Source: Promethearchaeota archaeon
GTDB lineage: Archaea; Asgardarchaeota; Heimdallarchaeia; Hodarchaeales; Hodarchaeaceae
Assembly: GCA_048938105.1 (NCBI GenBank)
Contig: JBHLMN010000006.1
Location: forward strand, 32,001-96,000
Length of the DNA stretch: 64,000 bases
Reading direction: 5' to 3'
Shown here: positions 49,008 through 63,717 of the stretch, piece by piece
Layout: each line of letters starts with the position of its first letter
Position numbering within the stretch: position 1 is the stretch's first letter
Program-made: the position numbers and the translations under genes
Notes under the pieces: generated by a model
The model's database searches: none
What the model was told of the DNA's origin: nothing
The model's input: only the letters and a program-made list of their open reading frames with translations

Positions 49008-49928
49008 ATGGCTAAACATGATCGTTTGATAACGTTGAAAGAGGCGGTGATTTATTCCAATCATGTAGAGGAAAACATCCGCCTACAGATCGAACGAGGT
49101 GCATTGAAAAAATATGATAAAAAGGGAAATCTACTGGAAGATCCTTTAAGAGTGAAAGGTTTCTTTAAACTATCTGAATTGATGTCAGTTTATGATATAA
49201 AGGATCCTGAGGCTGTTAAAAAACGTTTTCTTTCACGAAAGATCAGGAGGGATAGTGCTAAGAATATAAATCCCAAAACAACAGTCTTACTACGATCCTT
49301 TGAAATGAATAACTTGAAGAAAGTGATGGATAATAGTATTGATACTTGGATTCTTTCACCAAGATTCACATTAAACGAAAAGGAGGATAAAGTAACATAT
49401 AGTGAGATTTCTAAATCACTAGTTTTAAGAGAAGTTCATAGTTACTTGAAAGAATCCCAGCGGATTCTAAGACCTAAGGGCAATGTCATAATCCATTCCA
49501 TTCCACGATTTCTCCCTTATTTTGGTCTACAACTTAATAAGTTGGGATTTTTCTTTAAATACTGGATTGTTTATCCAAAGAAAAATTCAATTCAGCAAAA
49601 TTTGAAGAAATTTGTCCCCTTAGCAAATGGAATTCTTTATTATGTAAAATCTCCCAAGAATTTTAGGATTAATCGTGTAAGGATACCTTATCGGCATTGT
49701 TCTTTCTGTAATGAACCACTAAAGGATTATGGTGGAAAAAAACACCTAAGACATGTAGATGGAATGGTTTTGTCAGATATATGGCATTTAGATCACAATC
49801 CTACAGACCAAAATCTACCCTCTGAAATCTCTTCCTTTATTTTAAGACGATTAATTGATCTTTCTTGTACATCAGAGTCGTCCCTGCTACTTGCGCCATT
49901 TGATGGAGAAATTTCTAATGAATTTTGA
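49008..49928 (+). CDS. HTH + degenerate beta-class amino-methyltransferase-like protein
   Basis: N-terminal LITLKEA...IR..I..G.L HTH. SIDTWILSPRF replaces DPPY; RILRPKG, CSFC..LKDYGGKK and SDIW present. Ends right after LAPFDG (motif I remnant). Confidence 0.65.
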   Translation: MAKHDRLITLKEAVIYSNHVEENIRLQIERGALKKYDKKGNLLEDPLRVKGFFKLSELMSVYDIKDPEAVKKRFLSRKIRRDSAKNINPKTTVLLRSFEMNNLKKVMDNSIDTWILSPRFTLNEKEDKVTYSEISKSLVLREVHSYLKESQRILRPKGNVIIHSIPRFLPYFGLQLNKLGFFFKYWIVYPKKNSIQQNLKKFVPLANGILYYVKSPKNFRINRVRIPYRHCSFCNEPLKDYGGKKHLRHVDGMVLSDIWHLDHNPTDQNLPSEISSFILRRLIDLSCTSESSLLLAPFDGEISNEF

Positions 49929-50718
49929 AAATTCCATAATTACTGGGGATTGCATTGAAGAAATGAAGAAATTACCCTCTGAGATTGTTGATCTCGCATT
50001 TGCAGACCCTCCTTACAATTTAGAGAAAGATTATGGAATATATGAGGATTCCAATACCGCAGGTAACTATATCAACTGGACAGAGAAATGGTTAACCGAA
50101 ATTATACGGTTATTGAAGCCAGATGGGTCTTTTTATTTATTAAATCTTCCAAAATGGACTCTATATCATGCTGTGTTTTTAGATCAATTTTTGTATCGTC
50201 AGAATACAATTGCATGGGATGCTTTATCCACACCCCGAGGTAAGATAATGCCAGCTCATTATTCTTTACTTTATTATACCAAATCACCTCATGAATATAC
50301 CTTTAACAAATTAACCACAAAGCACAATTGGACGCATTGCGCCCGTGTAAAGTGTATTAAGCAACGAAATGCATCTTCATTAGTCGAACAGCCATTTTCA
50401 GACATTTGGACTAATATTTATAGAGTCAAACACCGAAGAAAGAGACATGCCCATCATCCTACCCAATTACCATTAACATTTATGGAAAGAATAATCTTAA
50501 CCTCTTCTAATGAAGGAGATATGGTATTCGATCCATTTCTTGGTGTAGGAACAACTACAATTGTAGCTAAACTCCTAAGACGAAAGTTCTTAGGTATTGA
50601 AATCAACCCTGTATATGTTCAAGAATCACTTAGAAAATTAAACCAAGTCTCATCATATCAGTCTCGTCTTGAATTTCAAAATAAACAACAAATAATGGAT
50701 CTTGAAAGATTTCTTTAA
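49918..50718 (+). CDS. Site-specific DNA methyltransferase, N4-C/N6-A beta class
   Basis: GDCIE.M, FADPPYN, HPTQLP, DPFLGVGTT, GIEINP. ATG 49918 has a GGAG RBS and overlaps the upstream stop. Confidence 0.92.
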   Translation: MNFENSIITGDCIEEMKKLPSEIVDLAFADPPYNLEKDYGIYEDSNTAGNYINWTEKWLTEIIRLLKPDGSFYLLNLPKWTLYHAVFLDQFLYRQNTIAWDALSTPRGKIMPAHYSLLYYTKSPHEYTFNKLTTKHNWTHCARVKCIKQRNASSLVEQPFSDIWTNIYRVKHRRKRHAHHPTQLPLTFMERIILTSSNEGDMVFDPFLGVGTTTIVAKLLRRKFLGIEINPVYVQESLRKLNQVSSYQSRLEFQNKQQIMDLERFL

Positions 50719-50765
50719 CAAAATCTCTTTTAAATTTTTTCACTAGGACCCCATAGTGATCAAAA

Positions 50766-52691
50766 GTGAATCCTAGTTTTAAAAAAAATCCACCTGGTGA
50801 GCATTATACACCACAGGTTTTAGCTCAATTTGTGGTTTGGTTTGCTTTTCAACAATTTTTTCGTCAACGATTACCTGATGATCAATGGGTTGAATCTTTT
50901 GTTCGATTTTCAGAAGGATTAATTCCTAAAATACCATCAAATGACTCAACATATCTACAAATGCAGAATCACACCAAAAACATTAAGATCCTAGACTTAG
51001 GGGCAGGAGACGGAGCTTTCCTATTAGCAACAGCTAGATTTCTTGAAAATCTTTATCGAAACGCAAACTCAACGGATTTTAAAGAACTAAAACTAAATAT
51101 ATTTGATAAGTGTATCTTTGGAGTTGATTATAATCCTCAAGCAGTTCATTCCTGTCGTGAGGATCTCAAAAAATGGATTCTAGATGATGGTTACTCTGAT
51201 CACAACCCTATTTTTACTGAAAAAGTAGAAAAATGCGTTGGACATCAAATAAGAACTGGAAATGTTTTACTTGGAGACATTCGCCTAGATAACCAAAAGA
51301 GCGTCTCAATAATAGAGTTTAATGAAGAATATAAAAAAAGAAGAATTTTTCATTGGCATAAAGAGTTTCCAAAGATTTTTACTAGTAAAAATTCAGGTTT
51401 TGACCTAATCCTATGCAATCCACCATATGTAACAAAGGATATCTCACCTGAGGATAACCGTCTTTATAGGAAATTGTATCGGGAGCAATTATTTGTTAAC
51501 CGTTTTAATTTATATCATCTATTCTTCGCTAGAGTGAATGATCTATTAGCTCCAAAAGGTATTGCAGTATTCTTAACTTCTAACTCTGTACTGACTGATA
51601 ATTACAGTTCAAAAGTACGAAGGTTTCTTCTTTCTCATTTTCATATTAATTCAATCATTGATTTTGTTAGTCGAACTCGGATTTTTCCAAATGTCCTCCA
51701 AGGAACTTGTATCTTAGTTATGCTTAAGAAAAATGGGACTTCTAAGCAAAAAACTCGAATTATTCGGACATTCGATATGAAATCTTTAATTCAAGGTGAA
51801 ATTGTTGAAAGATGCATTCCTACAACCCAATTATTTCACTTTAGGAAATTTATTCCCTCTCCATTTTCAAACACATTTAAAATTTTAACACATTTAAGGA
51901 AAAACACAATTCGACTAAAAAATCATTTTAAAATCCAAAGTGGGGAAATTAGACCTGCAGATAAAAAGATCAGATCTTATTACTTCAAAGAGATACCTAA
52001 AAACCTAAAGCCCTCAGACTTCGAGATTATATTAAATGGAAAAAATATTTCTCCTTATGTTATTAATCTCAAAGAAAATCGTGTGAAAGCTAGATGGTAT
52101 TTAAGACCTGAGAATGAGAATGAACGTATTTTTCGAGAAAAGCACACCCAAATTCCTCGAATTGTGTTTCAAAGGATTACAGCTAGAGAACAGTTACGTC
52201 GAGTTGTTGCAGGGAAGATTGATCAAGTTCACATTAACAATAATAAGCGAATTTGGGTTGAAAATAATGCTAATTATTTACTCCTTAATCATGATTTCCC
52301 ATCTAAATTGTTGTTATCAGCAGAGGCATTACTAGGAATCTTTAATTCACTCTTAATTAACTGGTACATACATCAAGTTAATTTAACAGCAGCTATCCCA
52401 CCAGCAGATTTGGAACTTATCCCTCTTCCTCTGAAAAAGCCTGAGAAACATAATCAATGGCAATTACTCCATCAAAGGGTAAATTCCATTCAGAAACTTC
52501 TCCAGAAATATTCTTCATCTTCAGAAATACTAACGTATCTTTGTCCTGTTTGTACATCCAGTGGAGAAATAAGTCAACTTCAATCAGATATAGATAGCTT
52601 AGTATTCCAACTTTATGAATTGCCTGAAAATTATCAGAATGAAATAATAAAACAATTAACTCAACATCATCAATACTTTAGCAATCATTAA
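50766..52691 (+). CDS. N6-adenine DNA methyltransferase, gamma class (TaqI/Eco57I-like) with target-recognition domain, no nuclease domain
   Basis: GEHYTP, ILDLGAGDGAFL, IFGVD, FHW..EFP, GFDLILCNPPY, NLY.LF, LLGIFNS.L, ID.LV..LYEL. Confidence 0.88.
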   Translation: MNPSFKKNPPGEHYTPQVLAQFVVWFAFQQFFRQRLPDDQWVESFVRFSEGLIPKIPSNDSTYLQMQNHTKNIKILDLGAGDGAFLLATARFLENLYRNANSTDFKELKLNIFDKCIFGVDYNPQAVHSCREDLKKWILDDGYSDHNPIFTEKVEKCVGHQIRTGNVLLGDIRLDNQKSVSIIEFNEEYKKRRIFHWHKEFPKIFTSKNSGFDLILCNPPYVTKDISPEDNRLYRKLYREQLFVNRFNLYHLFFARVNDLLAPKGIAVFLTSNSVLTDNYSSKVRRFLLSHFHINSIIDFVSRTRIFPNVLQGTCILVMLKKNGTSKQKTRIIRTFDMKSLIQGEIVERCIPTTQLFHFRKFIPSPFSNTFKILTHLRKNTIRLKNHFKIQSGEIRPADKKIRSYYFKEIPKNLKPSDFEIILNGKNISPYVINLKENRVKARWYLRPENENERIFREKHTQIPRIVFQRITAREQLRRVVAGKIDQVHINNNKRIWVENNANYLLLNHDFPSKLLLSAEALLGIFNSLLINWYIHQVNLTAAIPPADLELIPLPLKKPEKHNQWQLLHQRVNSIQKLLQKYSSSSEILTYLCPVCTSSGEISQLQSDIDSLVFQLYELPENYQNEIIKQLTQHHQYFSNH

Positions 52692-52750
52692 ATTTATTTG
52701 TTTTAAGATCTGTTAATATGATTGCTTCAAATTAGATCGAGATCTACCCC

Positions 52751-54172
52751 TTAATCATTATGAGAATATTTTCGTTTCCTTACTCTTCTCTTAAGGGTGA
52801 ATAAAATAGGGAGAATTATTAGAAATACCCCAAATCCCCAAGATGCTGCAGCAATTGAACTTGGAGGAATAATAATTGATTCAAGCAATATTAGTTCTTG
52901 GAATGCTAATAATATTTGTATTTGATCAAGAAGATGTTGTGAGCTTTGATCTGATAAAGAGGGATAGAAACCTGAGTTTGGAGCTTGCAATTTTTCGATT
53001 AATGATACTGCAACATACTTTCCATATTGAAGGTTTTCAAAAAAAACATTACAGCGAATGATAAGACTCTGATCGCTCGCAAGAATCCCTTCTGATGGCT
53101 TTCGATTGGTAAAATTATAGTATTTATTACAACTCCAATCTAAATTAATCAAATAGTTACCAATAAATTTATTCAATCGATTTATGAGTGGATCAAGTGA
53201 GAAATCAAGGTGTAACGCGTTGTCAAGCCGATGCAACGCAAGAATAAGATCTCCCTGTTCTTTACAGTTATATATAGGTGATGTCCAAGATAAATTAGCA
53301 TAGAAAGATTCAGGGATTCCATAAGTTTTATTTGTTAGTTGATCAAGGGTTTCTACTAAGTTTTTAGCATTATTATGTAATAAAGATAAATTGAAAAGGT
53401 TGGGAAATGTTGCTGCTTCTGAAAGGAATTCGATAAAAAGAATCTGGTCACTTGTTAATCGAAAAGAATCATTTGGAAAAGAACTTAAAGTATTTGTTAA
53501 GTTATCAGTTTTAGCTAGTACCTTTTTCCAAAGATATATGCAGGAGTTATGAAATATCTCGAGATTATACGGGTTTAGGGGGATCTCTTCAGGTGTATAA
53601 ACAAGGTAACTTCTCAATGCTCTGATTTGTAATTCATATCCCTCTAGGTCTGTAAATGATTCATTCCATAAGGGAAATTTTTCGAATAATAACTCTCTGC
53701 CAAGATCCCACCATTGTGAACCACGTTCAAATTGGTTTAAATACCAAATCAAGTCTAGCAGTTCAACATTGGAGATTAAACGAGATTTAACAACAGAACC
53801 TTCAATTATTACTGGGTTAATTGTTGAATGATTTTGAGAGATCATTTCGAAAATAATTGCCTCTAGCATATTTGCTGTCAACTCAAGATTGAGACTTTCT
53901 GATGTTAATGGGGTAGTCTCAGTGTCATTAGTAAGATTAGTACCTGAAGGAAGACTTCTCATAAGAGAAGCAATAGAAAGAAAACCAGAAGGGATTACTA
54001 TAAGTAGCACAATTCCAATCAGTATCTTAGTTCTATTCTTTTTGGGCCTAAAAATAAGAGGTGACTTCCCTCTCTTCATTCGGGAGAGGGATTTACGACT
54101 TTGTTTGATATAGGTCTCAAGTTCCTGTTCAGAAGGTCCATCGAAACCTTCCTGACCCCGAACTTCACTCAT
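52751..54172 (-). CDS. Membrane-anchored protein: N-terminal tail + TM, helical ectodomain, C-terminal CTERM-like TM
   Basis: TM ILIGIVLLIVIPSGFLSIA; repeated (S/L)DQ..I helices; many NxS/T sequons; C-terminus AASWGFGVFLIILPILFTLKRRVRKRK. Confidence 0.75.
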   Translation of the reverse strand: MSEVRGQEGFDGPSEQELETYIKQSRKSLSRMKRGKSPLIFRPKKNRTKILIGIVLLIVIPSGFLSIASLMRSLPSGTNLTNDTETTPLTSESLNLELTANMLEAIIFEMISQNHSTINPVIIEGSVVKSRLISNVELLDLIWYLNQFERGSQWWDLGRELLFEKFPLWNESFTDLEGYELQIRALRSYLVYTPEEIPLNPYNLEIFHNSCIYLWKKVLAKTDNLTNTLSSFPNDSFRLTSDQILFIEFLSEAATFPNLFNLSLLHNNAKNLVETLDQLTNKTYGIPESFYANLSWTSPIYNCKEQGDLILALHRLDNALHLDFSLDPLINRLNKFIGNYLINLDWSCNKYYNFTNRKPSEGILASDQSLIIRCNVFFENLQYGKYVAVSLIEKLQAPNSGFYPSLSDQSSQHLLDQIQILLAFQELILLESIIIPPSSIAAASWGFGVFLIILPILFTLKRRVRKRKYSHND

Positions 54173-54188
54173 ATAGACTTCACTTAAT

Positions 54189-55001
54189 CTACCTAGTTGT
54201 TATTAAATTATCACAGAATTTTTCAATATCTTTTGAGAAATAATGCTCTTTTTCTTCGATAACATAAATTCTTTCTGTTACGAATGGGATTCTGCGAAAA
54301 GAGTAAATTGGGTGAATAGAAATTGATTTTGAATTATTTTTCAAGTTCTCCCAAATAACCTGAATATTTTCTTCTGCTACTCTTACATCCTGAGGATTAG
54401 GTTCAAAAGATACATCCTCTTCGTGTTCTATTTGATTCATAATTGCAAAAAATTCTACTCCTTCCAGTTTAGAATAACATTCTGATATTAGTAAGTTTAG
54501 ACCCTTGATTTCGGATTTTACTGGTCGTGTGACAAGCATTACTTTATCCGAGACGACTAAAGCATCAAGAGATCGAAAAGTGATTCCAGGCATACAATCT
54601 ATGATCAAGAAATCATATTTTTGGGAATCACAATAGCGGATGAATTCAAAAAGCTTAGCAAGGATTCTCCCTTCTCCATGTTGGGTTAATTTTGAGCGAA
54701 CTTTGGATTTCTTTTGAAGAATCTCGATATCAGAGAAAACACAATCAAAATTAATTATTTTCGTTGAAACTATAACATCTTTTGGCTCTATATTTCCAAC
54801 TAGGAAATCAGTTAGGGACTTTTTACCTGATCCTTCACTAAGGAAATTCGGTTGTATATATGACTGGAGAGAGGGTGCTCGAAGATCGAGATCAACAAGA
54901 CAAACTTTCTTATTGAGAGTTGCTAACCTTACAGCAGTGTTGACGGATAAGAGAGTCTTTCCAACTCCTCCCCGATAGCTATGAAAAGTAATCGTCTCCA
55001 C
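54189..55001 (-). CDS. MinD/ParA family ATPase
   Basis: TFHSYRGGVGKT deviant Walker A, VDLDLRAPSL, YDFLIIDCMPG, IMNQ. GTG start directly abuts the upstream TAG. Confidence 0.9.
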   Translation of the reverse strand: METITFHSYRGGVGKTLLSVNTAVRLATLNKKVCLVDLDLRAPSLQSYIQPNFLSEGSGKKSLTDFLVGNIEPKDVIVSTKIINFDCVFSDIEILQKKSKVRSKLTQHGEGRILAKLFEFIRYCDSQKYDFLIIDCMPGITFRSLDALVVSDKVMLVTRPVKSEIKGLNLLISECYSKLEGVEFFAIMNQIEHEEDVSFEPNPQDVRVAEENIQVIWENLKNNSKSISIHPIYSFRRIPFVTERIYVIEEKEHYFSKDIEKFCDNLITTR

Positions 55002-55427
55002 CTATTCATCAACTCCTAATATTTTGTACAGGACTTCGGTTGCTTTGCTTTCAGGAGTGACTTTCACTCTCTTTTTAAGGACGAATCCAGTATCAGCTAG
55101 ATAATTCAAGTAGCGAGACTCCAATCCTCTACTACGATTAGTCTCAGCTGCAATATCAGAACTTGTAACCCAATCTTCCTTCTTTTGGATCGCTTTATAA
55201 GTCTTAAATAACCCTGGTCGCGATTCTTGTAGATTTAAAACTTCTAAACTCGTAGGCATTACTGTGTCTTCAATTTCATCCGAGTTCGATCCTTTTAAGC
55301 CCGTTGATCCTGCTACTTTCTCTAAAACGGTGTGCATATTTGACAAAGAGCTTTCAATATTAATCAGTTGCTGGGATATTTTCGTTATTTCCTTTAGAAT
55401 ATCTATTAAGACAGAATTTTCAGCCAT
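55002..55427 (-). CDS. Coiled-coil + winged helix-turn-helix DNA-binding protein
   Basis: Heptad-like N-terminus (aa 5-38). TYKAI...VTSSDIAAETNRSRGLESRYLNYLADTGFVLKKR...VLYKI wHTH. Confidence 0.82.
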   Translation of the reverse strand: MAENSVLIDILKEITKISQQLINIESSLSNMHTVLEKVAGSTGLKGSNSDEIEDTVMPTSLEVLNLQESRPGLFKTYKAIQKKEDWVTSSDIAAETNRSRGLESRYLNYLADTGFVLKKRVKVTPESKATEVLYKILGVDE

Positions 55428-55457
55428 TTTTACCTATTATCATAACAGATGAGGTAA

Positions 55458-55465
55458 GTTTATAT
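55458..55465 (-). promoter_or_regulatory. TATA box of the wHTH-MinD/ParA operon
   Basis: TATATAAA on the minus strand, 30 nt upstream of ATG 55427. Confidence 0.6.
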
Positions 55466-55489
55466 ACGTTGCGCAACATTGCGCAACGT
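55466..55489. promoter_or_regulatory. 24-bp palindromic operator/centromere-like site (two TTGCGCAA units, 10-bp period)
   Basis: ACGTTGCGCAA-CA-TTGCGCAACGT has perfect 11-bp arms, and each TTGCGCAA is itself palindromic. It is GC-rich in an AT-rich spacer and abuts the TATA box. Confidence 0.75.
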
Positions 55490-55775
55490 TTTTAAATCTA
55501 GTTGAACTTTGATTATATACGATGATATTTGTTGATAGATGTTGAAAAATTATCAGATTTGTAATATTAGGAAGTTATAATGTGAAGAAACAACTAATAA
55601 CTAAACTTAACTCAATATTACTATTCAAATCAACCTCTAATTAACAATATCCAATGAAATTCAATCTAGATAATTGTGCGAATTTCTCTTGAGAAAGGCT
55701 AATAGTCGATAATATATCTTATATAGTTGAAAAAGACCAATTAAGAATCAATAAATAATTGAGGTCGAAAGAAGT

Positions 55776-56666
55776 ATGAAAAAACTGCAAAAAAAACATT
55801 ATTTATTTATTATAACTTGCTTAAGCCTTCAATTTTTCATTACACCAGGAATTGTTCAAGGGGAAACTGCATTTGTTAACAGCTTTTGGAATACTTTAGG
55901 TTATGGTGAACATAATGTATTAACTGACTGGTCGGAAGCAGGAAGCATAGATTTTTCAGTGTTAGACTTCACAGGGGTACTTTATATCAAAAATGATTTC
56001 GATTCAATATACCTTGGTATAAGAATATTTGATAAAATTACAGAAAACTTGACTTGGAGGGTAAATTTTGATGTTGATGCTGATAATAACTGGGCTGAAG
56101 ATGCAAAAGCAATAAAATTACAGGGGGCACCCAATAATTTTGTTTTCTCTTATGATGATGAGTATTACATTCAAAACTATCCACAAGCTTTTCCTGATTT
56201 ACAATCGGATAATTTTTATTCTTCAATGAGAAATTTCACATCAGTTGGGAGAAAAAATACAATCTTTGAATTAACAATTCCTTTTCAAACAAATGACCCC
56301 CTTCATGACCTTCAGGTTCAGAATCCTGAAACAACGATTATTGGTCTTTCAATGGACGTTTTCTATATCGATACAGGTATAAATGGGACATGGCGAGGAA
56401 ATTCATATCCTAATTATGCTAATGCATCCAATTATGTCCATATCCTTTTCGCAGGCCCTCAAGATCGGAAAGTACCTGAGTTTGAAGAAGAGGAAGAGCC
56501 TCTACCAACTACCACTAAAACAACTGAAACAAAGAGTTCTACTGGGCCACCCTATGACATTAAGGAAGCTGGAGCTGCACATTCGTTTGAAGTAATACCT
56601 GCATTCATAGGATTAGTAGCAATTTCTTTAATATTAGGCAAATTTGGCAGGAGGAAAAAGGCATGA
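55776..56666 (+). CDS. Secreted surface protein, DOMON/CBM9-like beta-sandwich with CTERM-like anchor
   Basis: Signal peptide; LYIKND..SIYLGI, FDVDAD..W, FELTIPF; Thr-rich linker; AHSFEVIPAFIGLVAISLILGKFGRRKKA. Confidence 0.7.
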   Translation: MKKLQKKHYLFIITCLSLQFFITPGIVQGETAFVNSFWNTLGYGEHNVLTDWSEAGSIDFSVLDFTGVLYIKNDFDSIYLGIRIFDKITENLTWRVNFDVDADNNWAEDAKAIKLQGAPNNFVFSYDDEYYIQNYPQAFPDLQSDNFYSSMRNFTSVGRKNTIFELTIPFQTNDPLHDLQVQNPETTIIGLSMDVFYIDTGINGTWRGNSYPNYANASNYVHILFAGPQDRKVPEFEEEEEPLPTTTKTTETKSSTGPPYDIKEAGAAHSFEVIPAFIGLVAISLILGKFGRRKKA

Positions 56667-58348
56667 GAAAAGATAAATGCGCTTCATTTCTTATTTTATG
56701 TCTTCTTTGTGGATCTATTATCCCAATCACTCATGCAAGAAGCGCAGCAAATGAAAAACAACAATTTTATGGTACAGTGTATAAACAAGCAACTTCATTA
56801 GACTCTGGATTCTTCCATGATAAAGGCGCGCTTAGAGATCAACCTAAATCTTCAGTCATTAGCACCATGCAGAATTCACTCCTAGCAATAACATTAATTG
56901 ATGAATATAATATGGGAGGATCCGTCGACTTGCTTACTATTGCCCAGAGAATAATAAACACGAGTTCAAAATATTTTAGACTAAATTTCCATAGTGATCG
57001 TAAGGGGTGGGTTTCTTCGTATGACTTTACCAAAGAAGCTGAAAGTTTTGTAAAAAGTCGAAAATACACCCATGATCAATTCTTAATGGAACTCGGACTG
57101 GCAAAGAACTATCTGAATTTAAATCAAGATGATCCAGAGAGACGAGATTACTTGATCGACTTTAATGAAACAAACAAATTCATTGAAGAATATTTATTAG
57201 TACCTAATGAAGGTTGGATTGATTCTGTTTTCACCTTTAATGAAACTTTATACACAAAAAATAAGTTCAAAATAGTGGAACACATTTGTTGGACTATTTG
57301 GGCAGTGTTAAGTTTACCTTCTGGTTTCAGCTCCCCTTTGACAATAGATGACATAATCCAAATGGCCGATTTCTTGAACGACAATGCAATGTTAAATGAA
57401 GCAATCTACAATGTTTTGACTCCAGATGGAGAAACAACAGACCAAATAATAAAATTACGTACCAACGCCCTCTATGGAATAATCAACTTACTCTTATATG
57501 AAAAAACTCAAGACATAAAATTCTTAGACAGAGGAAAAGCAGTTTATGACTTTTTAGTAATTAATCTTTGGGATAGAGGCTTTAAATTATTCTGGGATGT
57601 AGTCGATGATGGTGGATTACTTTTAGTTCAAGGTAAAAGTTTAATTGGAAACGCTCTAGCGTGTTTCTTATCAAGTCGGTTATGCCGTTATTTCCCAACT
57701 AACATTACAATGAAAAGTATCTATGTCCTTTCAAACATTTTCATGGAACAATACCTCAAGAAAAGTAATACTTATAGTTATTACATCTCCTGCAGCACTG
57801 ATGGCAACCCGTTGTTGTCTCCATTCACTCTTGAAAGCAACTTAATCCGATTATGGCAACGAATTAATACTCTACATATAATAGATGGGACATATTCTTC
57901 TTCCGTCTCGATTGGAGAGAAGGTTCAAATTGATCTAAGTCTTGCAAATCCTGACAACTTAACTTATGGAATAATTGTTACTGGAGACGAAATAGAGCCT
58001 TTTAATTTAACAACATCAGAATCTAATCCATTTCTTATGATATCTCTAAGGAAAAATGCTGAAATTGGACATACAGAGATAAATATCAATATACAAGTAT
58101 TGAACAAGACTATAGAGAGAGTTGACTCTTTATCGCTCCAGATTGGTTCGGATAGGAGAATACCTCAGGGACTCATTTACATTGTTGCTTTAGGAATTTT
58201 AGTATGTATGGTTATTATTGCACGTTATCCCCCTAAAGAACTTGAAGAATTTATTTCTCGACTAGCTTCTATTGGTGTTACTGAAGAACCATCTTCAGAC
58301 GATTCTACTTCTGTAAAGGAGGTAGACATTCCTCAAGGTGAGGATTAA
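56663..58348 (+). CDS. Secreted (alpha/alpha)6-barrel-like protein (GH76/AGE/SPATA20-like fold) + Ig-like domain + C-terminal TM
   Basis: Signal peptide; NALYGIINLLLYEKTQDIKFLDRGKAVYDFL..NLWD..F helical-hairpin repeat; TM near the C-terminus; ATGA overlap with the previous gene. Confidence 0.65.
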   Translation: MRKDKCASFLILCLLCGSIIPITHARSAANEKQQFYGTVYKQATSLDSGFFHDKGALRDQPKSSVISTMQNSLLAITLIDEYNMGGSVDLLTIAQRIINTSSKYFRLNFHSDRKGWVSSYDFTKEAESFVKSRKYTHDQFLMELGLAKNYLNLNQDDPERRDYLIDFNETNKFIEEYLLVPNEGWIDSVFTFNETLYTKNKFKIVEHICWTIWAVLSLPSGFSSPLTIDDIIQMADFLNDNAMLNEAIYNVLTPDGETTDQIIKLRTNALYGIINLLLYEKTQDIKFLDRGKAVYDFLVINLWDRGFKLFWDVVDDGGLLLVQGKSLIGNALACFLSSRLCRYFPTNITMKSIYVLSNIFMEQYLKKSNTYSYYISCSTDGNPLLSPFTLESNLIRLWQRINTLHIIDGTYSSSVSIGEKVQIDLSLANPDNLTYGIIVTGDEIEPFNLTTSESNPFLMISLRKNAEIGHTEININIQVLNKTIERVDSLSLQIGSDRRIPQGLIYIVALGILVCMVIIARYPPKELEEFISRLASIGVTEEPSSDDSTSVKEVDIPQGED

Positions 58349-58352
58349 CTGA

Positions 58353-61300
58353 ATGGAAGGTAAAGACTCTTCCCGCAATTGTCCAAATTGCGGAGTACCA
58401 TTATTACCACGAGCGAAATTTTGTACTCAATGCGGTACAAAAATAGAAGCTGCAAGGATATTATGTCCTTCGTGTTCTAAAGAACTTGAATTGGACACTT
58501 GGTCCTGTCCTTATTGTGGCGCGCAGATTCCTAAAGAAGTTACTCCACCTCCAGATCATAAAATTCCTGAACCAGGCCAAAAACCCACTATAGAAACAGA
58601 TACAGCTCCTGTTACGACAACACCTAGTCAAGTCAGTACATTTGGAACACAACTACTAAGTTCTCTTAGAGAAAATATATCAACTGTCATTGTTGTGTTA
58701 GGTGCCCTTAGTATCATTGCTGCAATATCATTTACAATTATTGTCCTCCTACCAAGAGAATTAATTTCAGATGTTGAAATACCTCCTTTCGAAGGAATAA
58801 TCTTTGATTTATTTGTAATCTTAGGATTGATAGCATTAATAACAAAAGAATTAACAGTTTATCTTGGATATATACCTAAAAAGGAAACACTGGATAGATG
58901 GTTCTCTTTTGTGCTAATTCTCATTTTCTGGACCAATTTAATTACATTCAGTCTGGGATTAGTTGAAGTAAGTGTTTTTTTCCAATTCGGGCTAAATTTT
59001 ACCACAATGTTCGTATTTCTATCATTAGTGAATTTCTTAGTTAGTCTCCTATACTTTATGAGGTATAGAGAACCTCTTTTTTCTAGTACGTTTATCACTA
59101 CGATTATGAGTATTATATATTTACTACAATGGATTATCCCAATTGATATAACATCTTATACCATTCTAATCTTCTTGACAACCTTTGGTGTTATATTTGT
59201 TTCACAACAAACTAAAGATATGATTCTTTTCATTGGTTTGACCATCCTACTTCCCTTGATGTTTCTTTCCCCGTATCTTTTAAGCAACTCTATTGTGATT
59301 GCAATTATCATCCTGTTAGTCTCATTTCCTTATTTAAATGCAATCTTACAAAAATTTGTTATTAAAGAACCTGAAAAAAAGGATTTAATAATTAAATCTC
59401 TTGGAGACTTATGTAGTACCTTCGGAACACTTAATGTAGGATTTTCAGTTTTTTATGGTCATCTTCCCCCAATTCTTTCAATCGTAATACTCGCATTTCC
59501 TGTCATTGGTTTTATTATCTTGAAAGTAATACGCCCAAATTTTCAAAGATTACCTTTAAGAGACGGCTCTACTTCGGTGTTCTTATTATTCACATTGGTG
59601 TTCTTTGATTTTATAATCAAAGATTTATTAGTATTATTCGGAGTCGCTTTTCTTTTAATATTATATTCTACTTTTACAATTTTTGAATACGCTTCAATCC
59701 AACAACAAAATTTACAGCATTATGCTGAATTTTTTCTACTATTATCCTTACTTGTTGTCTCTTTAACAAACTTGCTCTTTCTCTGGAAGATTTGTCTATT
59801 ATTGATCCCTCTTTTAACTTTATTAATTTTAATTACACAGAAAAAGGCTATTAATCATCATGTGGCTCGTGGTTTCGTATTTGGATCTGAAATATTAATT
59901 TTGGTGGCTTTTCTACAAACACCAGCATTCGATTGGCCTGTGATCCCAATCTTTACCATTATTATAATAATAGGAGTTTCAATTATATTCATTTTTTATA
60001 AAGAGAATAGAAAAAATGAGTTTTCACTAGATTTGGCTGTTTTTTCACTGATTTCCGAAGGAACATTACTTGTGATGATGTTATGGACAAAAAGTAGTAT
60101 TGAAATGCTTTACCCTGCTATTATACTTCTTGCTTTAACTAGTATTATCACTATTAGTCAAATACGACAAAAAATCTCACCTAATTTCTTGTGGTTAAAC
60201 TCTACGTTTATAGTTTGTTTTGGTTTGATGACCTATTGGAATGAATTTGATATAAGATGGACGGTTTCTGTGACTTTTCTACTAATTCTTCCAATATTAA
60301 TTGAAGGTTTACTAGCAAAAAGTACCGAAAACCTTTCAGCTGCAGAGACAATTGTTAAAAACAGAAATCTAAACATATCGTTAACAGCAATTGGTTTAGC
60401 TTTAATAATACTTTTTGAAGAATTAGATCCTATAAGTCATGCTGTATTATTCTTGATAATTCCTATTGTATGGATAGCAATATATCTTTTCGATAAACTC
60501 AATTTCAACTCTGTTTCTGAATTGTTAATAATCGTATTCCCAGGAATTATCTTCACACTAGAAATGTTGCTTAAGCAGGAAATATTTACACCGATTACTG
60601 ATAATATGTACCTTTATCTGACATTAATTACATTTTCAATTCCTGTTATAGTATTACAGGTAGAACATTTTCTTTTAAGAAGAACCAAGATAACAATCAA
60701 CCCATTAATCATTGGAACAGCACTAGCATCTTTAATAATAATGGTCGCATTCTGGACGTATAAGTTCCAACCTGAAGAAAATCTGATGCTTGTTTTCGGA
60801 TTGATATTTGCTTTAATTATCTCAGTTTTCTTAATAAAATGGCAATATGAGTCCATATTGCTGCTATTAGTTTCATTCTTACCTTCAACGCTATATGCAG
60901 GCTATATTGATTTTCCTTCTACGTTTGCATTTCATTTAATTCCAATTTTCCCCATTTTATTTAACTTAATAATGGGACTCATATACATAAGGACTGACCT
61001 CTCAGCTAAGCTACATGAATTCTTAATGTTGATTTATTTTGGGATTTTTATTCTATTCAATCCAATTCAGATGATTGAATACACCACAGCTTTGTTTACA
61101 TTATTCTATACTAGCTGGCTCTTTCTTGGGCTTATAAAACGAAAAATTAGTCAAGTTGTGTTTATTTCAACAAATTTACTTAATTCTATTTTCGTACTTG
61201 TCCTCATGGTCTTTATAGATCCTCTCGTTTCTGAATTATTCATACAAGAACTGGGAATTGACCTTCCATTCAAAACCACTCTGATTAGTTTGACTCTGGT

Positions 61301-61907
61301 AATGATGGCCTTAGTGACACTTTTTCACATTATAAGCTGGCAATTAACTGAAAATACTATTGAGTATTCATTTCTGATGGCTTTTACCCTGATATTCAAT
61401 AGTTCAGCTTTTATACTATCATCAGTTCAATTCTTAATTAGAACGACAGAAATTACGCTTAATACCATTGTATTATGTATTTTATCAGGTTTTACTATCC
61501 TATTAATCCTCTTTCTAATTTCATATGCTAGAATCAAGAGATTAAAAACGGATATTTCACTTGCTTGCACCTATACTGCAGCTATTTGGGTACTCTTATC
61601 ATCAATTTATTTTCCAAATATTGAACTAGTTTTTCTTTGGTTATTTTTTGCTCCTTTAATGATATTGGTGTTTATATCTACACGAAAAAGAAAAGAAATT
61701 GTCCTATTGGGAATTATTTTCTATTTTTTTGTTGGCCTGAGATTAATTGAACATATACTCGAGTTTTTATTAGCTGGAACAACAGAATGGAGCACAATTT
61801 TTGGATTAATAATCTTTGGAATAGAATTGGTTTCATTAGGTATTTATTCATCGATATCTGCTAAAAAAATTAATAAAACAAATAATGAAGATGGTTTCTC
61901 AACCTAG
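58353..61907 (+). CDS. Double-zinc-ribbon + very large polytopic membrane protein (roughly 30 TM helices by eye)
   Basis: CPNC, CTQC, CPSC, CPYC in the first 56 aa; Pro/Thr linker; then ~1070 aa of near-continuous hydrophobic helices. Confidence 0.85.
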   Translation: MEGKDSSRNCPNCGVPLLPRAKFCTQCGTKIEAARILCPSCSKELELDTWSCPYCGAQIPKEVTPPPDHKIPEPGQKPTIETDTAPVTTTPSQVSTFGTQLLSSLRENISTVIVVLGALSIIAAISFTIIVLLPRELISDVEIPPFEGIIFDLFVILGLIALITKELTVYLGYIPKKETLDRWFSFVLILIFWTNLITFSLGLVEVSVFFQFGLNFTTMFVFLSLVNFLVSLLYFMRYREPLFSSTFITTIMSIIYLLQWIIPIDITSYTILIFLTTFGVIFVSQQTKDMILFIGLTILLPLMFLSPYLLSNSIVIAIIILLVSFPYLNAILQKFVIKEPEKKDLIIKSLGDLCSTFGTLNVGFSVFYGHLPPILSIVILAFPVIGFIILKVIRPNFQRLPLRDGSTSVFLLFTLVFFDFIIKDLLVLFGVAFLLILYSTFTIFEYASIQQQNLQHYAEFFLLLSLLVVSLTNLLFLWKICLLLIPLLTLLILITQKKAINHHVARGFVFGSEILILVAFLQTPAFDWPVIPIFTIIIIIGVSIIFIFYKENRKNEFSLDLAVFSLISEGTLLVMMLWTKSSIEMLYPAIILLALTSIITISQIRQKISPNFLWLNSTFIVCFGLMTYWNEFDIRWTVSVTFLLILPILIEGLLAKSTENLSAAETIVKNRNLNISLTAIGLALIILFEELDPISHAVLFLIIPIVWIAIYLFDKLNFNSVSELLIIVFPGIIFTLEMLLKQEIFTPITDNMYLYLTLITFSIPVIVLQVEHFLLRRTKITINPLIIGTALASLIIMVAFWTYKFQPEENLMLVFGLIFALIISVFLIKWQYESILLLLVSFLPSTLYAGYIDFPSTFAFHLIPIFPILFNLIMGLIYIRTDLSAKLHEFLMLIYFGIFILFNPIQMIEYTTALFTLFYTSWLFLGLIKRKISQVVFISTNLLNSIFVLVLMVFIDPLVSELFIQELGIDLPFKTTLISLTLVMMALVTLFHIISWQLTENTIEYSFLMAFTLIFNSSAFILSSVQFLIRTTEITLNTIVLCILSGFTILLILFLISYARIKRLKTDISLACTYTAAIWVLLSSIYFPNIELVFLWLFFAPLMILVFISTRKRKEIVLLGIIFYFFVGLRLIEHILEFLLAGTTEWSTIFGLIIFGIELVSLGIYSSISAKKINKTNNEDGFST

Positions 61908-61994
61908 TTACTGTAGAGATCGTTTTAGCAGAAAAAATGAATCAAATATTACAGTCATATCTGTAAAGAGTTTTTATAGTCAATCTAGGTAAGT

Positions 61995-63050
61995 TTGCTA
62001 AAAGCACTCTCCAAAGAAAAAACAGGAAATAGGACATTGGATAATAATACTCGGAGATTGTATCTTAATAATTGGGCTATACTTGCTGCGGAAAATGAAG
62101 CTAAATGGCACTTTGGTGATATCACGGAAGAAAGGCTTCTCCAAACATTATATTTTGTAAATGCGCTTAGCAAGCTCGGATCTGAGATCTTAGGACAGGT
62201 TATCGGTGTCATCAGACTGCATTATCCCAAGCTTCATCCTACACAAGCACGAGAAATCATGGTCGTCAATTTACTGAACAAATATAGCATTGTGATATCT
62301 GATCCTTTAGTTACGACCAGACTGATTAAGAAAATTGAATTAGAGTCAGGTTCTGCTCCTCCATTCGATGAAATGCGAAGCATTCTGGCTGGGGCTGCTT
62401 CTGTTATTTATTCTCAGTTTTATTCTGAGGAAGGTGATAGTAATGTTGTGGATAGGTTATTTCGGGAAGCGGTTAATGCAGTAACTTATAGTGAACATGT
62501 CACTGTAGGAAATGGAGAATGTTCATTTTCAGCACTGAGTTTTGAGGAGTTATTATTCTTTCATGCGCTCCTGAAGGAATTATTTGAAAACCACTTTTCA
62601 ATATTACACCCTGGTAAGCCTTGGGGAATTATGAGTTCAATTTCAGGAGCTCCAATATTTTTATCATATGATCCTCCTAGTGATGCAGCTTTAATAAGCT
62701 CTTTTTCCTCAGTTATTGCGAATTATTGCAATTTTCTTTTCAATGCCTCCCCAGCACGACTTGTTTTCGGAATTAATCCCATGTCCGCAATGGATTTTAT
62801 TGTCACTAAAGAAAATCTCTTTGTAATCAACAATCCGAGGAAATTATTTCGTTTACAACGATTTCAGCGGCTATGGAAGAAGGTTCCTTCAGAGGTTGCA
62901 CATGAACTTGCACCTGCAATGAAGGACTATTTTACTGAATTAATTCTTCAAGAACGGCATGAGAGATTTAAAAAACTAAAATTTCATCAGATCATTAATC
63001 TAATGACCCAAATGGGGATAAAACGAGCACGAAAATATAAATTACCCTAA
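61995..63050 (+). CDS. Soluble protein with probable tandem longin-like domains
   Basis: Two beta-beta-alpha-beta-beta-beta-like units. The second has GIMSSISGAPIFLSY...DAALISSFSSVIANYC. TTG start is uncertain. Confidence 0.55.
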   Translation: MLKALSKEKTGNRTLDNNTRRLYLNNWAILAAENEAKWHFGDITEERLLQTLYFVNALSKLGSEILGQVIGVIRLHYPKLHPTQAREIMVVNLLNKYSIVISDPLVTTRLIKKIELESGSAPPFDEMRSILAGAASVIYSQFYSEEGDSNVVDRLFREAVNAVTYSEHVTVGNGECSFSALSFEELLFFHALLKELFENHFSILHPGKPWGIMSSISGAPIFLSYDPPSDAALISSFSSVIANYCNFLFNASPARLVFGINPMSAMDFIVTKENLFVINNPRKLFRLQRFQRLWKKVPSEVAHELAPAMKDYFTELILQERHERFKKLKFHQIINLMTQMGIKRARKYKLP

Positions 63051-63080
63051 AATTTAGTATCTGATAAAATAGGGGTTAAT

Positions 63081-63245
63081 TCATTGATAATATTCTTCTT
63101 GTGCTATCTCTTTTCCGCAACGTTGACATTTATAAACACGAAATTCGTCATATTCATGTTTAGCAAACTCTCCTTTTGTAATTATCGACTGTTTTTGAGA
63201 GATTAATCTAAAAGAATGACCAAATATCAGGCATTTTAGACCCAT
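63081..63245 (-). CDS. Small zinc-binding protein, DUF1660-like (54 aa)
   Basis: KCLIFGH...YKCQRCGKE pattern. ATG 63245 has GAGG upstream. Confidence 0.65.
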   Translation of the reverse strand: MGLKCLIFGHSFRLISQKQSIITKGEFAKHEYDEFRVYKCQRCGKEIAQEEYYQ

Positions 63246-63261
63246 GAGAATAACGCATCCC

Positions 63262-63717
63262 TCAGATTGGAACAGAAACATCAGCAATAAGAGGATGAGT
63301 ACAATCTAAGAGCTCATCAATAGAAATTGATAGAAGTTTATTTGACGTTCCTCCACCAGCATATAACTGGGTGCTTTCTAGGCTTAATTCATCTAAAATG
63401 ATCGGTAAATCAACGCTGATAGGTGGAACATCCCCTACTTTGTAGCCTGTAACATTTTCAACTTGTTCAGGTGAAGCCAACTTAATATCTTTTACATGAA
63501 GCAAGTTTTTTAATTTCTTTGTTTTAATTTTGCGATTTCCTTGGAGAAGTACCAGATAAAATTCTTTCGTATCGGTCACAACAATAATTGATTTTATTAT
63601 TTCCTCTGGCATACAATTTAAGGCCTTTACACTCTCATTGACCGTTTTTGTAGAAGTCTTTAAAGAAATTATTTTCGCTGTAAGCCCATTTTCATCGATG
63701 TATTGCTGAAGTCGCAT
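63262..63717 (-). CDS. YbaK/EbsC/ProX aminoacyl-tRNA deacylase
   Basis: T.TV.E....L, IIKSI, LASPEQV..VTGY.VG.VPP, YAGGG. Confidence 0.9.
   Translation of the reverse strand: MRLQQYIDENGLTAKIISLKTSTKTVNESVKALNCMPEEIIKSIIVVTDTKEFYLVLLQGNRKIKTKKLKNLLHVKDIKLASPEQVENVTGYKVGDVPPISVDLPIILDELSLESTQLYAGGGTSNKLLSISIDELLDCTHPLIADVSVPI

Follow-up and report, generated by a model that had tools for sequence, protein, structure and literature searches.

The flagged 10 kb of this Asgard archaeon (Hodarchaeales), part of an analysed stretch of 64,000 nucleotides (the window), is a place where three separately inherited units meet: the trio A1-A2-A3, the divergent operon B1-B2-B3 and the downstream gene B4. 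Sequence comparison supports a link between A and B through their co-occurrence within the genus and a common operator that is rare in the genome. The reading we prefer, to which we give an even chance, is that A is a regulator-ATPase-membrane cassette, B a surface sugar-binding module under the same control site, and B4 unrelated.

Organization of the locus

The ORF list gave seven genes in two diverging arms (Table 1), in exact agreement with the sequence-only reading, which had described two coupled operons separated by a 348-bp spacer. In the left arm, A2 abuts the preceding stop and A3 follows after a 16-nt gap. In the right arm, an ATGA overlap precedes B2, a 4-nt gap precedes B3 and 87 nt lie before B4. 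The latter has 351 aa if a TTG start is used; the public gene call begins 14 codons further inward. The seven ORFs are real genes, since intact orthologues of all of them exist in other genomes at 35–85% identity. That the genes encode envelope proteins whose families are almost wholly uncharacterised was also borne out.

Table 1. Position and assignment of the features of the divergent locus. Positions are those of the window.
Feature	Position	Strand	Length	Assignment and basis
A3	52751–54172	-	473 aa	Bitopic membrane protein; hydropathy, ESM Atlas model
A2	54189–55001	-	270 aa	ParA/MinD-family P-loop ATPase; Pfam
A1	55002–55427	-	141 aa	Predicted wHTH DNA-binding protein; weak profile matches
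Spacer	55428–55775		348 bp	Between the two arms; ORF list
TATA-like box TATATAAA	55459–55466	-		Precedes the A1 ATG by about 32 nt; putative promoter, read from sequence
Operator	55466–55489	.		Two overlapping 14-bp palindromes (ACGTTGCGCAACAT / ACATTGCGCAACGT); sequence
TATA-like run TTTTTAAA	55490–55497			B side of the operator; putative promoter, read from sequence
B1	55776–56666	+	296 aa	Surface protein; AF2 model, Foldseek, VIA
B2	56663–58348	+	561 aa	Surface protein; AF2 model, Foldseek, PDB profile
B3	58353–61907	+	1184 aa	Zn-ribbon head and polytopic body; Pfam DZR, hydropathy
B4	61995–63050	+	351 aa (or 337 aa)	Cytoplasmic; Hodarchaeales-specific multi-copy family

Unit A combines a wHTH protein, a ParA-type ATPase and a membrane-anchored ectoprotein

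A1 consists of a long N-terminal helix (about residues 5–40) and a C-terminal winged HTH (about residues 75–125), with weak matches to wHTH profiles of NCBIfam (Sta1, 0.0015; Lrs14, 0.0077) and Pfam (MarR_2 and TrmB, about 0.07). Its orthologues (47–73% identity) are the first gene of the trio every time. The ATPase A2 had been taken for a ParA/MinD protein, and the Pfam matches agree (AAA_31, 5e-24; ParA, 9e-11; CbiA, 6.5e-8). The NCBIfam KGGVGR-variant model also matched (6.5e-21), under the cut-off of that model, and archaeal MinD 1ion (1.9e-9) and 1g3q were the closest solved structures. The Walker A motif, HSYRGGVGKT, carries an Arg where the signature Lys is expected, and this Arg is kept in 10/10 orthologues.

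A3 starts with a conserved cytoplasmic N-tail of 48 aa, followed by a TM helix (about residues 50–68), a Thr-rich stalk and an ectodomain of about 340 aa; by hydropathy, a second TM helix (about residues 440–458) and a basic tail close the protein. Sequence searches of Pfam and the PDB returned no match for A3, which sits below the Pfam cut-offs. The ESM Atlas model (pLDDT 0.62, moderate confidence) has AGE, GH76 and GH88 clusters as structural neighbours, with TM scores over residues 90–434 of 0.56–0.62 by query and 0.60–0.70 by target. Judging from this model, the ectodomain is probably an (alpha/alpha)6 toroid. The N-tail is the best-conserved stretch of A3 and the sole region that could be aligned to the counterparts of family f3 (hhalign E 6e-5); A3 orthologues share 35–63% identity.

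The trio is intact in 12/20 genomes of the genus, that is, in every one that has A3, also in those with B on a separate contig or with no B found. Two other Heimdallarchaeial families have A-like trios as well, f2 (2/2 genomes) and f3 (22/31), and there the divergent arm encodes a VWA protein and a RING-TM protein instead.

Unit B encodes two anchored surface proteins and a giant polytopic protein

B1 is composed of a signal peptide, a beta-sandwich (about residues 32–229), an acidic and Thr-rich stalk, a C-terminal TM helix and a basic tail. A Pfam search was without match. The AF2 model (pLDDT 71.8) retrieved CBM9 structures with Foldseek (7nwn, 1.6e-6; 1i82, 1.1e-5). The VIA Z scores were 15.0 for NxrC, 14.7 for EbdC, 14.1 for CBM9 1i82 and 11.6 for the DBH DOMON domain; the rmsd was 2.8 over 157 residues with 1i82 and ranged overall from 2.8 to 3.4 over 157–187 residues. 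As modelled, the ectodomain is a CBM9/DOMON-type beta-sandwich, which confirms the DOMON-like assignment of the sequence-only reading. Across 10 orthologues, no invariant His or Met was found.

B2 carries a signal peptide, an (alpha/alpha)6 toroid (about residues 38–401), a beta-sandwich (405–495), a TM helix (502–521) and a cytoplasmic tail. With its AF2 model (pLDDT 74.8, pTM 0.76), Foldseek found YihS, glucose-2-epimerase, mannose isomerase, cellobiose 2-epimerase and GH76 (E about 1e-6 to 1e-7, target TM 0.6–0.7), and a profile matched PDB 5zig at 1.5e-6. The modelled protein is an AGE/GH76-type (alpha/alpha)6 toroid, as had been guessed. An anchored helical barrel had been proposed on both arms; B2 meets this description through its models and A3 through its ESM Atlas neighbours. 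The cut-off of Pfam GlcNAc_2-epim is passed by an orthologue from family f5 (genome G084), and a distant member of the family is named 'AGE family epimerase/isomerase' by NCBI; B2 of the window lies below the Pfam cut-offs, as does A3. The two could be binding proteins without catalysis. The RYPP motif of the cytoplasmic tail of B2 is invariant in 28 sequences, and RxPP is retained in distant members.

The third product, B3, agrees with the earlier description of a DZR giant polytopic protein. Its cytoplasmic head contains two Zn ribbons (residues 10–56; Pfam DZR, 5.7e-10) and is joined by a Pro/Thr linker to a body of about 33 TM helices, in which the longest loop by hydropathy is 41 aa or less. 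A search for internal repeats found none. B3 orthologues are 38–62% identical, and the counterparts from other families have the Zn ribbon alone in common with B3. Their TM bodies could not be aligned, so a common function for these giants is an assumption.

B1-B2-B3 is an operon conserved in three families, often far from A. It was found in 7 genomes of the genus, where its neighbours vary, as well as in 2 metagenome loci, in family f2 (G022) and in family f5 (G084, G078 and G082). The B2 family is present in 5/12 genomes of f5, where no A2-like gene was detected (0/12 at E<=1e-25), so that B can do without A. In f3, the B2 family was found in none of the 31 genomes.

A rare putative operator links the promoters of A and B

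The operator in the spacer is made of two palindromes whose TTGCGCAA cores are spaced 10 bp, and it is kept upstream of A1 in 8/9 loci. Only three exact AYRTTGCGCAAYRT sites are present in the 5.85-Mb genome to which the window belongs (G000). Two of them make up the operator of A1. The third, adjacent to a TATA element, lies about 95 nt upstream of another gene for a secreted, TM-anchored protein. The TATA-like boxes on either side of the operator would, from their sequence, act as promoters. In the window, the B1 promoter lacks a separate operator copy; the operator lies upstream, at a distance of about 290 bp from the B1 ATG.

In the relative G002 (3.9 Mb), A and B are on separate contigs, and the only two exact operator sites of the genome are those in the promoters of A and B1, each directly upstream of a TATA box. 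A copy with one mismatch is found at the same place in the B1 promoter of G019 and G017. Since one-mismatch matches occur at background frequency, these two sites rest on position and on conservation among relatives and do not count as independent. The A operator of G010 and its B1 site are both degenerate. From genome-wide counts, we estimate the chance of an exact operator in a 100-bp promoter to be of the order of 1e-5.

Within the genus, A and B were found together in 10 genomes, A without B in 3, B without A in none and neither in 8. They are on different contigs in four genomes (G002, G010, G019 and G017). It is improbable that A and B are unrelated lineage-specific sets, with their adjacency and the B1-promoter palindrome of the relatives being coincidental or a relic of an ancestral intergenic region. 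Such a reading would fit the separable distributions (A only in f3, B only in f5) and the neighbours of B, which may be a methyltransferase, an asparagine synthase-like gene or a Hef-like helicase. It would also fit G017, where a further operator-bearing copy of the spacer is flanked by unrelated genes, indicating that this segment moves. Against it stand the placement of the two exact sites of G002, the low chance of an exact site in a promoter and the absence of any genus genome having B without A.

Alternative readings of the locus

An immune role for A is improbable to the same degree. A recent preprint predicts a mostly archaeal 'ParA-wHTH system' (ConB2 ParA clade), in which a ParA gene accompanies a wHTH protein with an elongated N-terminal helix (bioRxiv 10.64898/2026.10.19.760177). 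A1-A2, with or without A3, could be such an anti-invader system coating foreign DNA, and B an unrelated neighbour. The A1-A2 architecture is the same, and the spread is patchy (12/20 genus genomes). The cassette also occupies a variable island slot beside orphan DNA methyltransferases: between the gene at 47457–48881 and B4 there is a three-methyltransferase cassette, and A or B are present, absent or shuffled there among genomes of the genus. PADLOC gave a weak P-loop match (PDC-M28B, 9.9e-9), but neither PADLOC nor PHROG gave further signals. Moreover, A1 is not the fastest-evolving component (47–73% identity versus 35–63% for A3), its promoter has a conserved cognate operator with copies at promoters of surface-protein genes, and the third gene encodes an extracellular toroid protein while an effector gene is absent. 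In the four f3 loci examined, the cassette has a fixed position beside the VWA/RING arm and cdc6, with no island.

The sequence-only reading had assembled all seven products into one trans-envelope machine of glycan modules, a giant scaffold, Zn-ribbon/longin adaptors and a positioning ATPase. The divergent A and B arms with B4 downstream recur in G009, A beside B in G011 and G014, and B3-B4 in G012 and G020; toroid ectodomains are present on both arms, and A3, B2 and B3 have cytoplasmic motifs. However, the genomes with the same layout are close relatives and count as one evolutionary event, and A, B and B4 are on separate contigs in G002, G010 and G019. The expected conservation of the neighbourhood held for the B operon in three families and for the intact A trio, and failed for A, B and B4 as a whole, which are separable. 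For B4 the machine is largely refuted: an orthologue exists in 20/20 genus genomes irrespective of A or B, with 4–6 paralogues per genome, and G011 has A beside B with its B4 orthologue on another contig. This orthologue adjoins a YbaK-like gene wherever that flank was checked, and in G010 and G006 it immediately adjoins the orthologue of the 47457–48881 gene. The double-longin fold proposed for B4 found no support either, as Pfam and PDB profile searches returned no match and only a weak similarity between the N- and C-terminal halves was seen. B4 is an unrelated backbone gene that belongs to neither module. A single machine is unlikely, and the earlier interpretation as a whole was partly supported.

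Least probable of all is a SegAB/AspA-ParBA-like DNA partition cassette (A1 as centromere binder, the palindrome as centromere, A2 as motor and A3 as tether, with an unrelated right arm), which the translational coupling of a ParA-family ATPase to a predicted site-specific DNA binder, the repeats upstream of the operon and, in f3, a Cdc6/Orc1 gene within about 4 kb would suit, but which meets only two repeat units, a G000 cdc6 orthologue on another contig (nearest paralogue about 88 kb off), a cassette position that varies between genus genomes, an identical palindrome at surface-protein gene promoters, an Arg where the classic ParA dimer ATPase requires the signature Lys and a large extracellular toroid left unexplained.

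A model for the regulator-ATPase-membrane cassette and its surface module

In our preferred reading, A1 would bind the palindrome of the TTGCGCAA type with which its own promoter overlaps, and would probably govern both operons, its own included. A2 would act on A3, whose 48-residue cytoplasmic N-tail is a likely handle. A3 would present its toroid outside the cell, between its two TM helices. A2 may switch or place A3, and perhaps also the B complex, via the RYPP tail and the Zn ribbon. In this complex, the putative sugar-binding sandwich of B1 and the toroid of B2 would stand on stalks with C-terminal TM anchors, and B3 would most likely be their membrane platform. The B trio most likely binds, and possibly modifies, mannose- or GlcNAc-type glycans of the cell's own surface or of its surroundings.

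Comparison with known systems

Bacterial cellulose (bcs) loci, which serve an envelope glycan apparatus, have two divergent operons that encode, among other parts, the MinD/ParA-like ATPase BcsQ and, outside the cytoplasm, the (alpha/alpha)6 protein BcsZ. The resemblance of the present locus is an analogy only: the GT-2 synthase, PilZ or c-di-GMP parts and outer-membrane parts are missing, and A2 matches the BcsQ family at a negligible level (Pfam 0.086). The AGE enzymes known so far act as sugar isomerases and are soluble. B2, and probably A3, share the (alpha/alpha)6 fold of AGE epimerases/isomerases and GH76 alpha-1,6-mannanases, but B2 has 10–12% identity to them, lies below the Pfam cut-offs, is anchored in the membrane at the surface and has an extra beta-sandwich and a cytoplasmic tail. 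The B1 ectodomain has the fold of the CBM9/DOMON superfamily (EbdC, NxrC, DBH and the CDH cytochrome; Z 14–15). Unlike these, B1 is a free-standing TM-anchored protein, not part of an enzyme; it has no Pfam match and no invariant His or Met for haem ligation (10 orthologues).

Archaeal MinD proteins, for instance Haloferax MinD4, are reported to place envelope machines (bioRxiv 10.1101/2020.04.03.021790). Pyrococcus MinD (1ion, 1g3q) is the nearest solved relative of A2; however, the match reaches no more than about 1e-9, the signature Lys has given way to Arg, and A2 has a dedicated wHTH protein and a bitopic ectoprotein as partners. Two further systems also pair ParA with such elements (10.64898/2026.10.19.760177). 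PCTM unites a cytoplasmic ParA, a TM segment and an extracellular domain in one protein; A2 and A3 join the same elements, but as separate genes. APE consists of an alpha-alpha toroid, a ParA and an effector, the toroid being thought to contact ParA via a helix. The A locus likewise has a ParA beside a probable alpha-alpha toroid protein, but the toroid of A3 resembles AGE and lies outside the cell, unlike a cytosolic TED-like toroid with a charged C-terminal helix, and an effector gene is absent.

The sequence-only reading had recognised no described system, which is only partly true, because A1-A2 resembles, by description, the two-gene core of the ParA-wHTH system (10.64898/2026.10.19.760177). 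Unlike that system, the A locus has a third conserved gene for a doubly anchored extracellular toroid protein, and A1, which is not its fastest-evolving part, has a conserved operator both in its own promoter and in those of surface-protein genes. This pairing of the cassette with surface operons points away from the immune role proposed for the ParA-wHTH system.

Gene organization of the locus

The ORF map is identical, base for base, to what the sequence-only reading of this DNA had claimed: two divergent arms with the spacer, overlap and gaps listed below. The left arm encodes the A cassette (A1 to A3) and the right arm the B trio (B1 to B3), followed by the downstream neighbour B4. Homologues of the products carry source names that agree with a placement in Hodarchaeales. 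No RNA genes were detected in 52500-63400 with Rfam at E<=0.1. The promoter and terminator scan used bacterial models and is uninformative for archaeal DNA.

Genes and spacer of the divergent locus, in window coordinates
Feature	Position	Strand	Source	Remark
A1 (wHTH protein)	55002-55427	-	ORF map	
A2 (ParA/MinD ATPase)	54189-55001	-	ORF map	
A3 (bitopic ectoprotein)	52751-54172	-	ORF map	
Spacer between arms	55428-55775			348 bp
B1 (CBM9/DOMON protein)	55776-56666	+	ORF map	
B2 (toroid protein, P0005)	56663-58348	+	ORF map	ATGA overlap with B1
B3 (giant Zn-ribbon protein)	58353-61907	+	ORF map	4-nt gap after B2
B4 (downstream neighbour)	61995-63050	+	ORF map	87-nt gap after B3

The A and B cassettes are conserved separately

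Neighbourhood conservation had been proposed as a check on the claim that the locus encodes a single machine. B1-B2-B3 and A1-A2-A3 are each conserved, but the whole seven-gene set is not. The B1-B2-B3 trio was found in seven genomes of the genus, with 38-71% identity and varying neighbours, and on two metagenome contigs (in-genus-level loci); G017 also has B1-B2, at a contig end. Beyond the genus, comparable trios of a B1-like, a B2-like and a giant Zn-ribbon membrane protein gene occur in family f5 (G084, G078 and G082) and in G022, which belongs to another family of the order. A1-A2-A3 is intact in 12/12 genus genomes that have A3. The two cassettes are on separate contigs in G002, G010 and G019; A is present and no B gene was found in G004, G013 and G018, and no genus genome has B without A. 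They are also separable across families, f3 having A only and f5 B only. With orthologues distributed over different contigs and families, and B4 independent of both cassettes, the single-machine claim is not supported.

A-like trios are present in both f2 genomes (2/2) and in 22 of the 31 f3 genomes. They consist of a wHTH protein, a ParA with 33-42% identity and a third protein, ~455-480 aa long, whose TM helices fall near residues 50 and 430; between families, A3 is alignable only over its cytoplasmic N-tail. In the f3 loci that were fully read, the divergent arm encodes a signal-peptide-VWA-TM protein and a membrane protein whose RING finger is cytoplasmic.

Loci of the f3 type include L105-L108 (genomes G068, G027, G071 and G074; e.g. 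L108:4050-10107). The palindrome in L108 differs from that of the window (TCAATATATC|GATATATTGA at L108:6666), and in L105 a Cdc6/Orc1 gene lies just past the VWA/RING arm. Proximity to a replication origin was considered for G000, the genome of the window, and rejected, the cdc6 orthologue not being near the locus.

B4 is a bystander, outside both modules. An orthologue is present in 20/20 genus genomes, each of which has 4-6 paralogues, and its YbaK-like neighbour is constant; in G010 and G006 it directly adjoins the orthologue of the geranylgeranyl-reductase-like gene (47457-48881). B4 has no Pfam match, and a PDB search with a profile built from 20 members of its family was negative; the one sign of two domains in tandem is a weak match of its N-half to its C-half (hhalign E 0.012, probability 3.5%). 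The double-longin assignment of the sequence-only reading, with two alpha-beta-alpha domains of the longin type, therefore stays a conjecture. Tandem duplicates of B4 are seen in some relatives (L011 of G009, 12957-15166; L032 of G015), and family members of ~550-590 aa occur in two other genera of the order.

Gene content differs between two backbone genes, the reductase-like gene and B4, which therefore delimit a variable slot. It is occupied by a three-methyltransferase cassette, A and B, whose combination and order vary among the genus genomes. The slot is bounded by the geranylgeranyl-reductase-like FAD oxidoreductase gene and by the pair formed by B4 and the YbaK-like editing-domain gene (window 47457-52691 and 63262-63717). 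In G020, A is located between the reductase and MT1, a gene of the methyltransferase cassette, and in G012 A3 directly adjoins the reductase. The G003 slot (L036, G003:C197, 2687-2854) contains a 56-aa remnant of the B3 C-terminus between the orthologues of MT3, another methyltransferase-cassette gene, and B4. This looks like a deletion scar, the B trio having been lost from the slot.

Products of the B trio

The product assignments of the sequence-only reading fared better than its machine. The DOMON-like surface protein (B1) is a CBM9/DOMON sandwich by AF2 model, Foldseek and VIA; the AF2 model, Foldseek and PDB profile agree on a toroid for the (alpha/alpha)6-like surface protein (B2); the DZR giant polytopic protein (B3) has two Zn ribbons and ~33 hydrophobic helices; and the ATPase (A2) is assigned to the ParA/MinD family (deviant Walker A, SIMIBI) by family models above cut-off.

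The B1 model (pLDDT 71.8) adopts the beta-sandwich of the CBM9/DOMON superfamily. Foldseek matched it to CBM9 (1.6e-6), and VIA gave Z 14.1-15.0 to 1i82, 4jpq, 2ivf_C and 7b04_C over an Ig-like background of Z ~7, the neighbours being NxrC, EbdC, a Bacteroides carbohydrate-binding protein and CBM9. Pfam scans of all B1 family members gave no consistent family, and the family profile found nothing in the PDB. Haem ligands would point to a DOMON cytochrome and a sugar-stacking Trp pair to a CBM9. No His or Met is invariant in 10 B1 orthologues, which argues against a haem-binding DOMON; several Trp and Asp residues are conserved in the same comparison. The conserved C-terminal GAAxxFE, TM helix and RRR of B1 was considered as a shared sorting signal and rejected because it is unique in the genome.

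In B2, an (alpha/alpha)6 toroid is followed by a beta-sandwich and a TM helix, and the cytoplasmic tail carries RYPP, an invariant motif. The Foldseek targets of B2, AGE-family isomerases and GH76 mannanases, are YihS, cellobiose 2-epimerase, AGE and GH76 (E 3e-7 to 1e-5, target TM 0.6-0.7, ~400 aligned columns), and the B2 profile matched the PDB at 1.5e-6. The sole Pfam match of B2 is C5-epim_C (16.6 bits, under the 23.3 cut-off); its G084 orthologue passes GlcNAc_2-epim (26.6 versus a cut-off of 23.4). Catalysis would call for a His pair (AGE/CE) or Asp-Asp (GH76).

In B3, the two Zn ribbons (window 58353-58530) are cytoplasmic and precede the hydrophobic helices, which are joined by short loops. 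Among orthologues, only the first ribbon is invariant (C10, C13, C24 and C27). The second ribbon (residues 38-56) is not conserved in more distant orthologues. Only Zn-ribbon families were matched at E<=1 in Pfam and NCBIfam, and none by the membrane body; no family model, of GT-C glycosyltransferases or of other known polytopic families, matches it. The ESM Atlas feature neighbours of B3 are unnamed DZR-headed giants, DUF2157 and DUF2339, and a search for internal repeats reached a best hhalign probability of 4%. Homology of the TM body to the G022 and G084 giants was rejected, since the Zn ribbon alone aligns. Between families, the membrane bodies of the giants are unalignable, while size and operon position are kept. 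In the giant of the B-like trio of G022 (L067, G022:C775, 6015-9740) the Zn ribbon is C-terminal, not N-terminal.

Products of the A cassette

A2 scored above the family cut-offs of AAA_31 (85.6 bits versus 27; 5e-24), ParA PF10609 (42.1 versus 27.1), CbiA (33 versus 25.4) and MipZ (25.8 versus 20.7), and its closest solved structures are Pyrococcus MinD. The deviant Walker A opens with a signature Lys (xKGGxxGK[ST]); in A2 the motif reads HSYRGGVGKT, and the Arg that takes the place of this Lys is kept in 10/10 orthologues examined. A MinD would have a C-terminal amphipathic membrane-targeting helix, and a ParA or MinD a partner of the ParB/MinE type; no ParB or MinE family match was found in the locus by Pfam and NCBIfam searches. 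A bacterial tyrosine (BY) kinase with a two-TM activator was dismissed, the C-terminus having no Tyr cluster and the eps_fam match reaching 39.5 bits versus a cut-off of 108.

The A1 and A2 genes abut in every locus. The C-terminal wHTH of A1 was matched weakly (Sta1, Lrs14) and is preceded by a long N-terminal segment predicted to be helix-like. Across the genus, A1 is 47-73% identical, intermediate between A2 (64-83%) and A3 (35-63%).

Hydropathy places two TM helices in A3. A conserved cytoplasmic N-tail of 48 residues precedes the first; a Thr-rich stalk and a large ectodomain separate it from the second, which is followed by a basic tail. The ESM Atlas model of the exact protein (pTM 0.64) has AGE epimerase, GH76 and GH88 toroids as structural neighbours over residues 90-434. 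This probable toroid is flanked by the two TM helices and is therefore extracellular. Pfam scans of all A3 family members gave no consistent family, and the family profile found nothing in the PDB. Homology between A3 and B2 was rejected (hhalign probability 0.2%, nothing by BLASTP); a shared fold, if real, is invisible in sequence.

A putative operator at the A1 promoter and, in relatives, at the B1 promoter

The A1 promoter contains two TTGCGCAA cores 10 bp apart, immediately upstream of the TATA box and conserved in 8/9 A loci. The 14-mer AYRTTGCGCAAYRT has three exact copies in the 5.85-Mb G000 genome, two of which form the 24-bp A1 operator. Only the 14-mer form is rare: the TTGCGCAA core occurs at 38 sites genome-wide versus 44-61 expected, i.e. 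without enrichment. G002, in which A and B are not linked, contains just two exact 14-mer copies in 3.9 Mb: one at the A1 promoter and one (ACATTGCGCAATGT) at the B1 promoter, immediately upstream of its TATA box. G019 and G017 have a one-mismatch copy at the same position of the B1 promoter, although one-mismatch matches are generally at background and the genomes are related. With such a 14-bp operator, the regulon would be expected to comprise very few genes, all for surface proteins.

The third AYRTTGCGCAAYRT copy of G000, the sole exact one outside the A1 promoter, adjoins a TATA-like box on contig C1 (L078, 2192-2205). It lies ~95 nt upstream of a gene (L078:2306-3637) encoding a 443-aa protein with a signal peptide, a C-terminal TM helix and a weak BNR_2 match, which, judging from this site, may belong to the A1 regulon as its third member. 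Another double operator, ACGTTGCGCAACGTTACGCAAC, was found in G017:C59 (L079, 2664-2685), between the gene for a VWA membrane protein of 713 aa and that for an M28 peptidase. The sequence flanking this operator is homologous to the window spacer (CAACAAATATCATCGTATAT...), which suggests that the segment carrying it moves between loci.

Proposed roles of the two modules

The data are consistent with A and B being two autonomous modules, brought together in one subclade and probably co-regulated by A1. The B module would be a surface glycan-binding, possibly glycan-modifying, complex on a giant membrane platform. In the A module, a regulated ParA/MinD switch would act on the doubly anchored toroid protein via its cytoplasmic tail. 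That A2 is physically coupled to the B complex is speculation.

A wider proposal, which we consider a long shot, is that Heimdallarchaeia have a ParA/MinD-driven family in which the wHTH-ATPase-bitopic cassette regulates and spatially organises an exchangeable surface-receptor operon. This operon would be the CBM9/toroid/giant Zn-ribbon scaffold here, and another family would have the VWA plus RING-TM pair instead. Handles in the cytoplasm, namely the A3 tail, the RYPP tail and Zn or RING fingers, would be read by the ATPase, which would thereby mark a membrane domain or protrusion. If true, receptor clustering would have a prokaryotic forerunner in the archaea closest to eukaryotes.

Almost nothing is known of the envelope biology of Hodarchaeales, an order that counts among the nearest known archaeal kin of eukaryotes. 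What had been a block of hypothetical proteins can now be described as two delimited, conserved modules whose folds are assigned: one combines a CBM9/DOMON sandwich with an AGE-like toroid and a giant Zn-ribbon membrane protein, the other a wHTH protein with a ParA-type ATPase and a doubly anchored toroid. The surface operon that accompanies the A cassette differs from family to family, and if this pairing is functional, it would represent a new coupling between a ParA-type ATPase and receptors at the cell surface.

Comparison with known systems

The sequence-only reading recognised no described system of this composition. This stands for the B trio, for which no description was found in the literature, the folds being known but the composition not. 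It holds less well for the A1-A2 core, in which a ParA gene abuts a gene whose product has weak wHTH matches. This core is similar to the 'ParA-wHTH system' of archaea, for which an immune function has been proposed (bioRxiv 10.64898/2026.10.19.760177). That system is defined by a rapidly evolving wHTH protein with an elongated N-terminal helix and by a ParA of the ConB2 clade. A2 and A3 together also resemble an unfused form of the PCTM architecture of the same preprint (10.64898/2026.10.19.760177). The APE system (alpha-alpha toroid-ParA-effector) differs, the A3 toroid being extracellular and the A trio having no effector-type gene. A defence or phage origin was rejected, PADLOC and PHROGs giving generic ParA P-loop matches only. 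An immune role, as proposed for the ParA-wHTH system, is kept as a rival explanation for the A cassette. An envelope role is favoured by three features: the operator is conserved, the third protein is extracellular, and pairing with surface operons recurs. The results offer a non-immune reading for at least one branch of the proposed archaeal ParA-wHTH systems.
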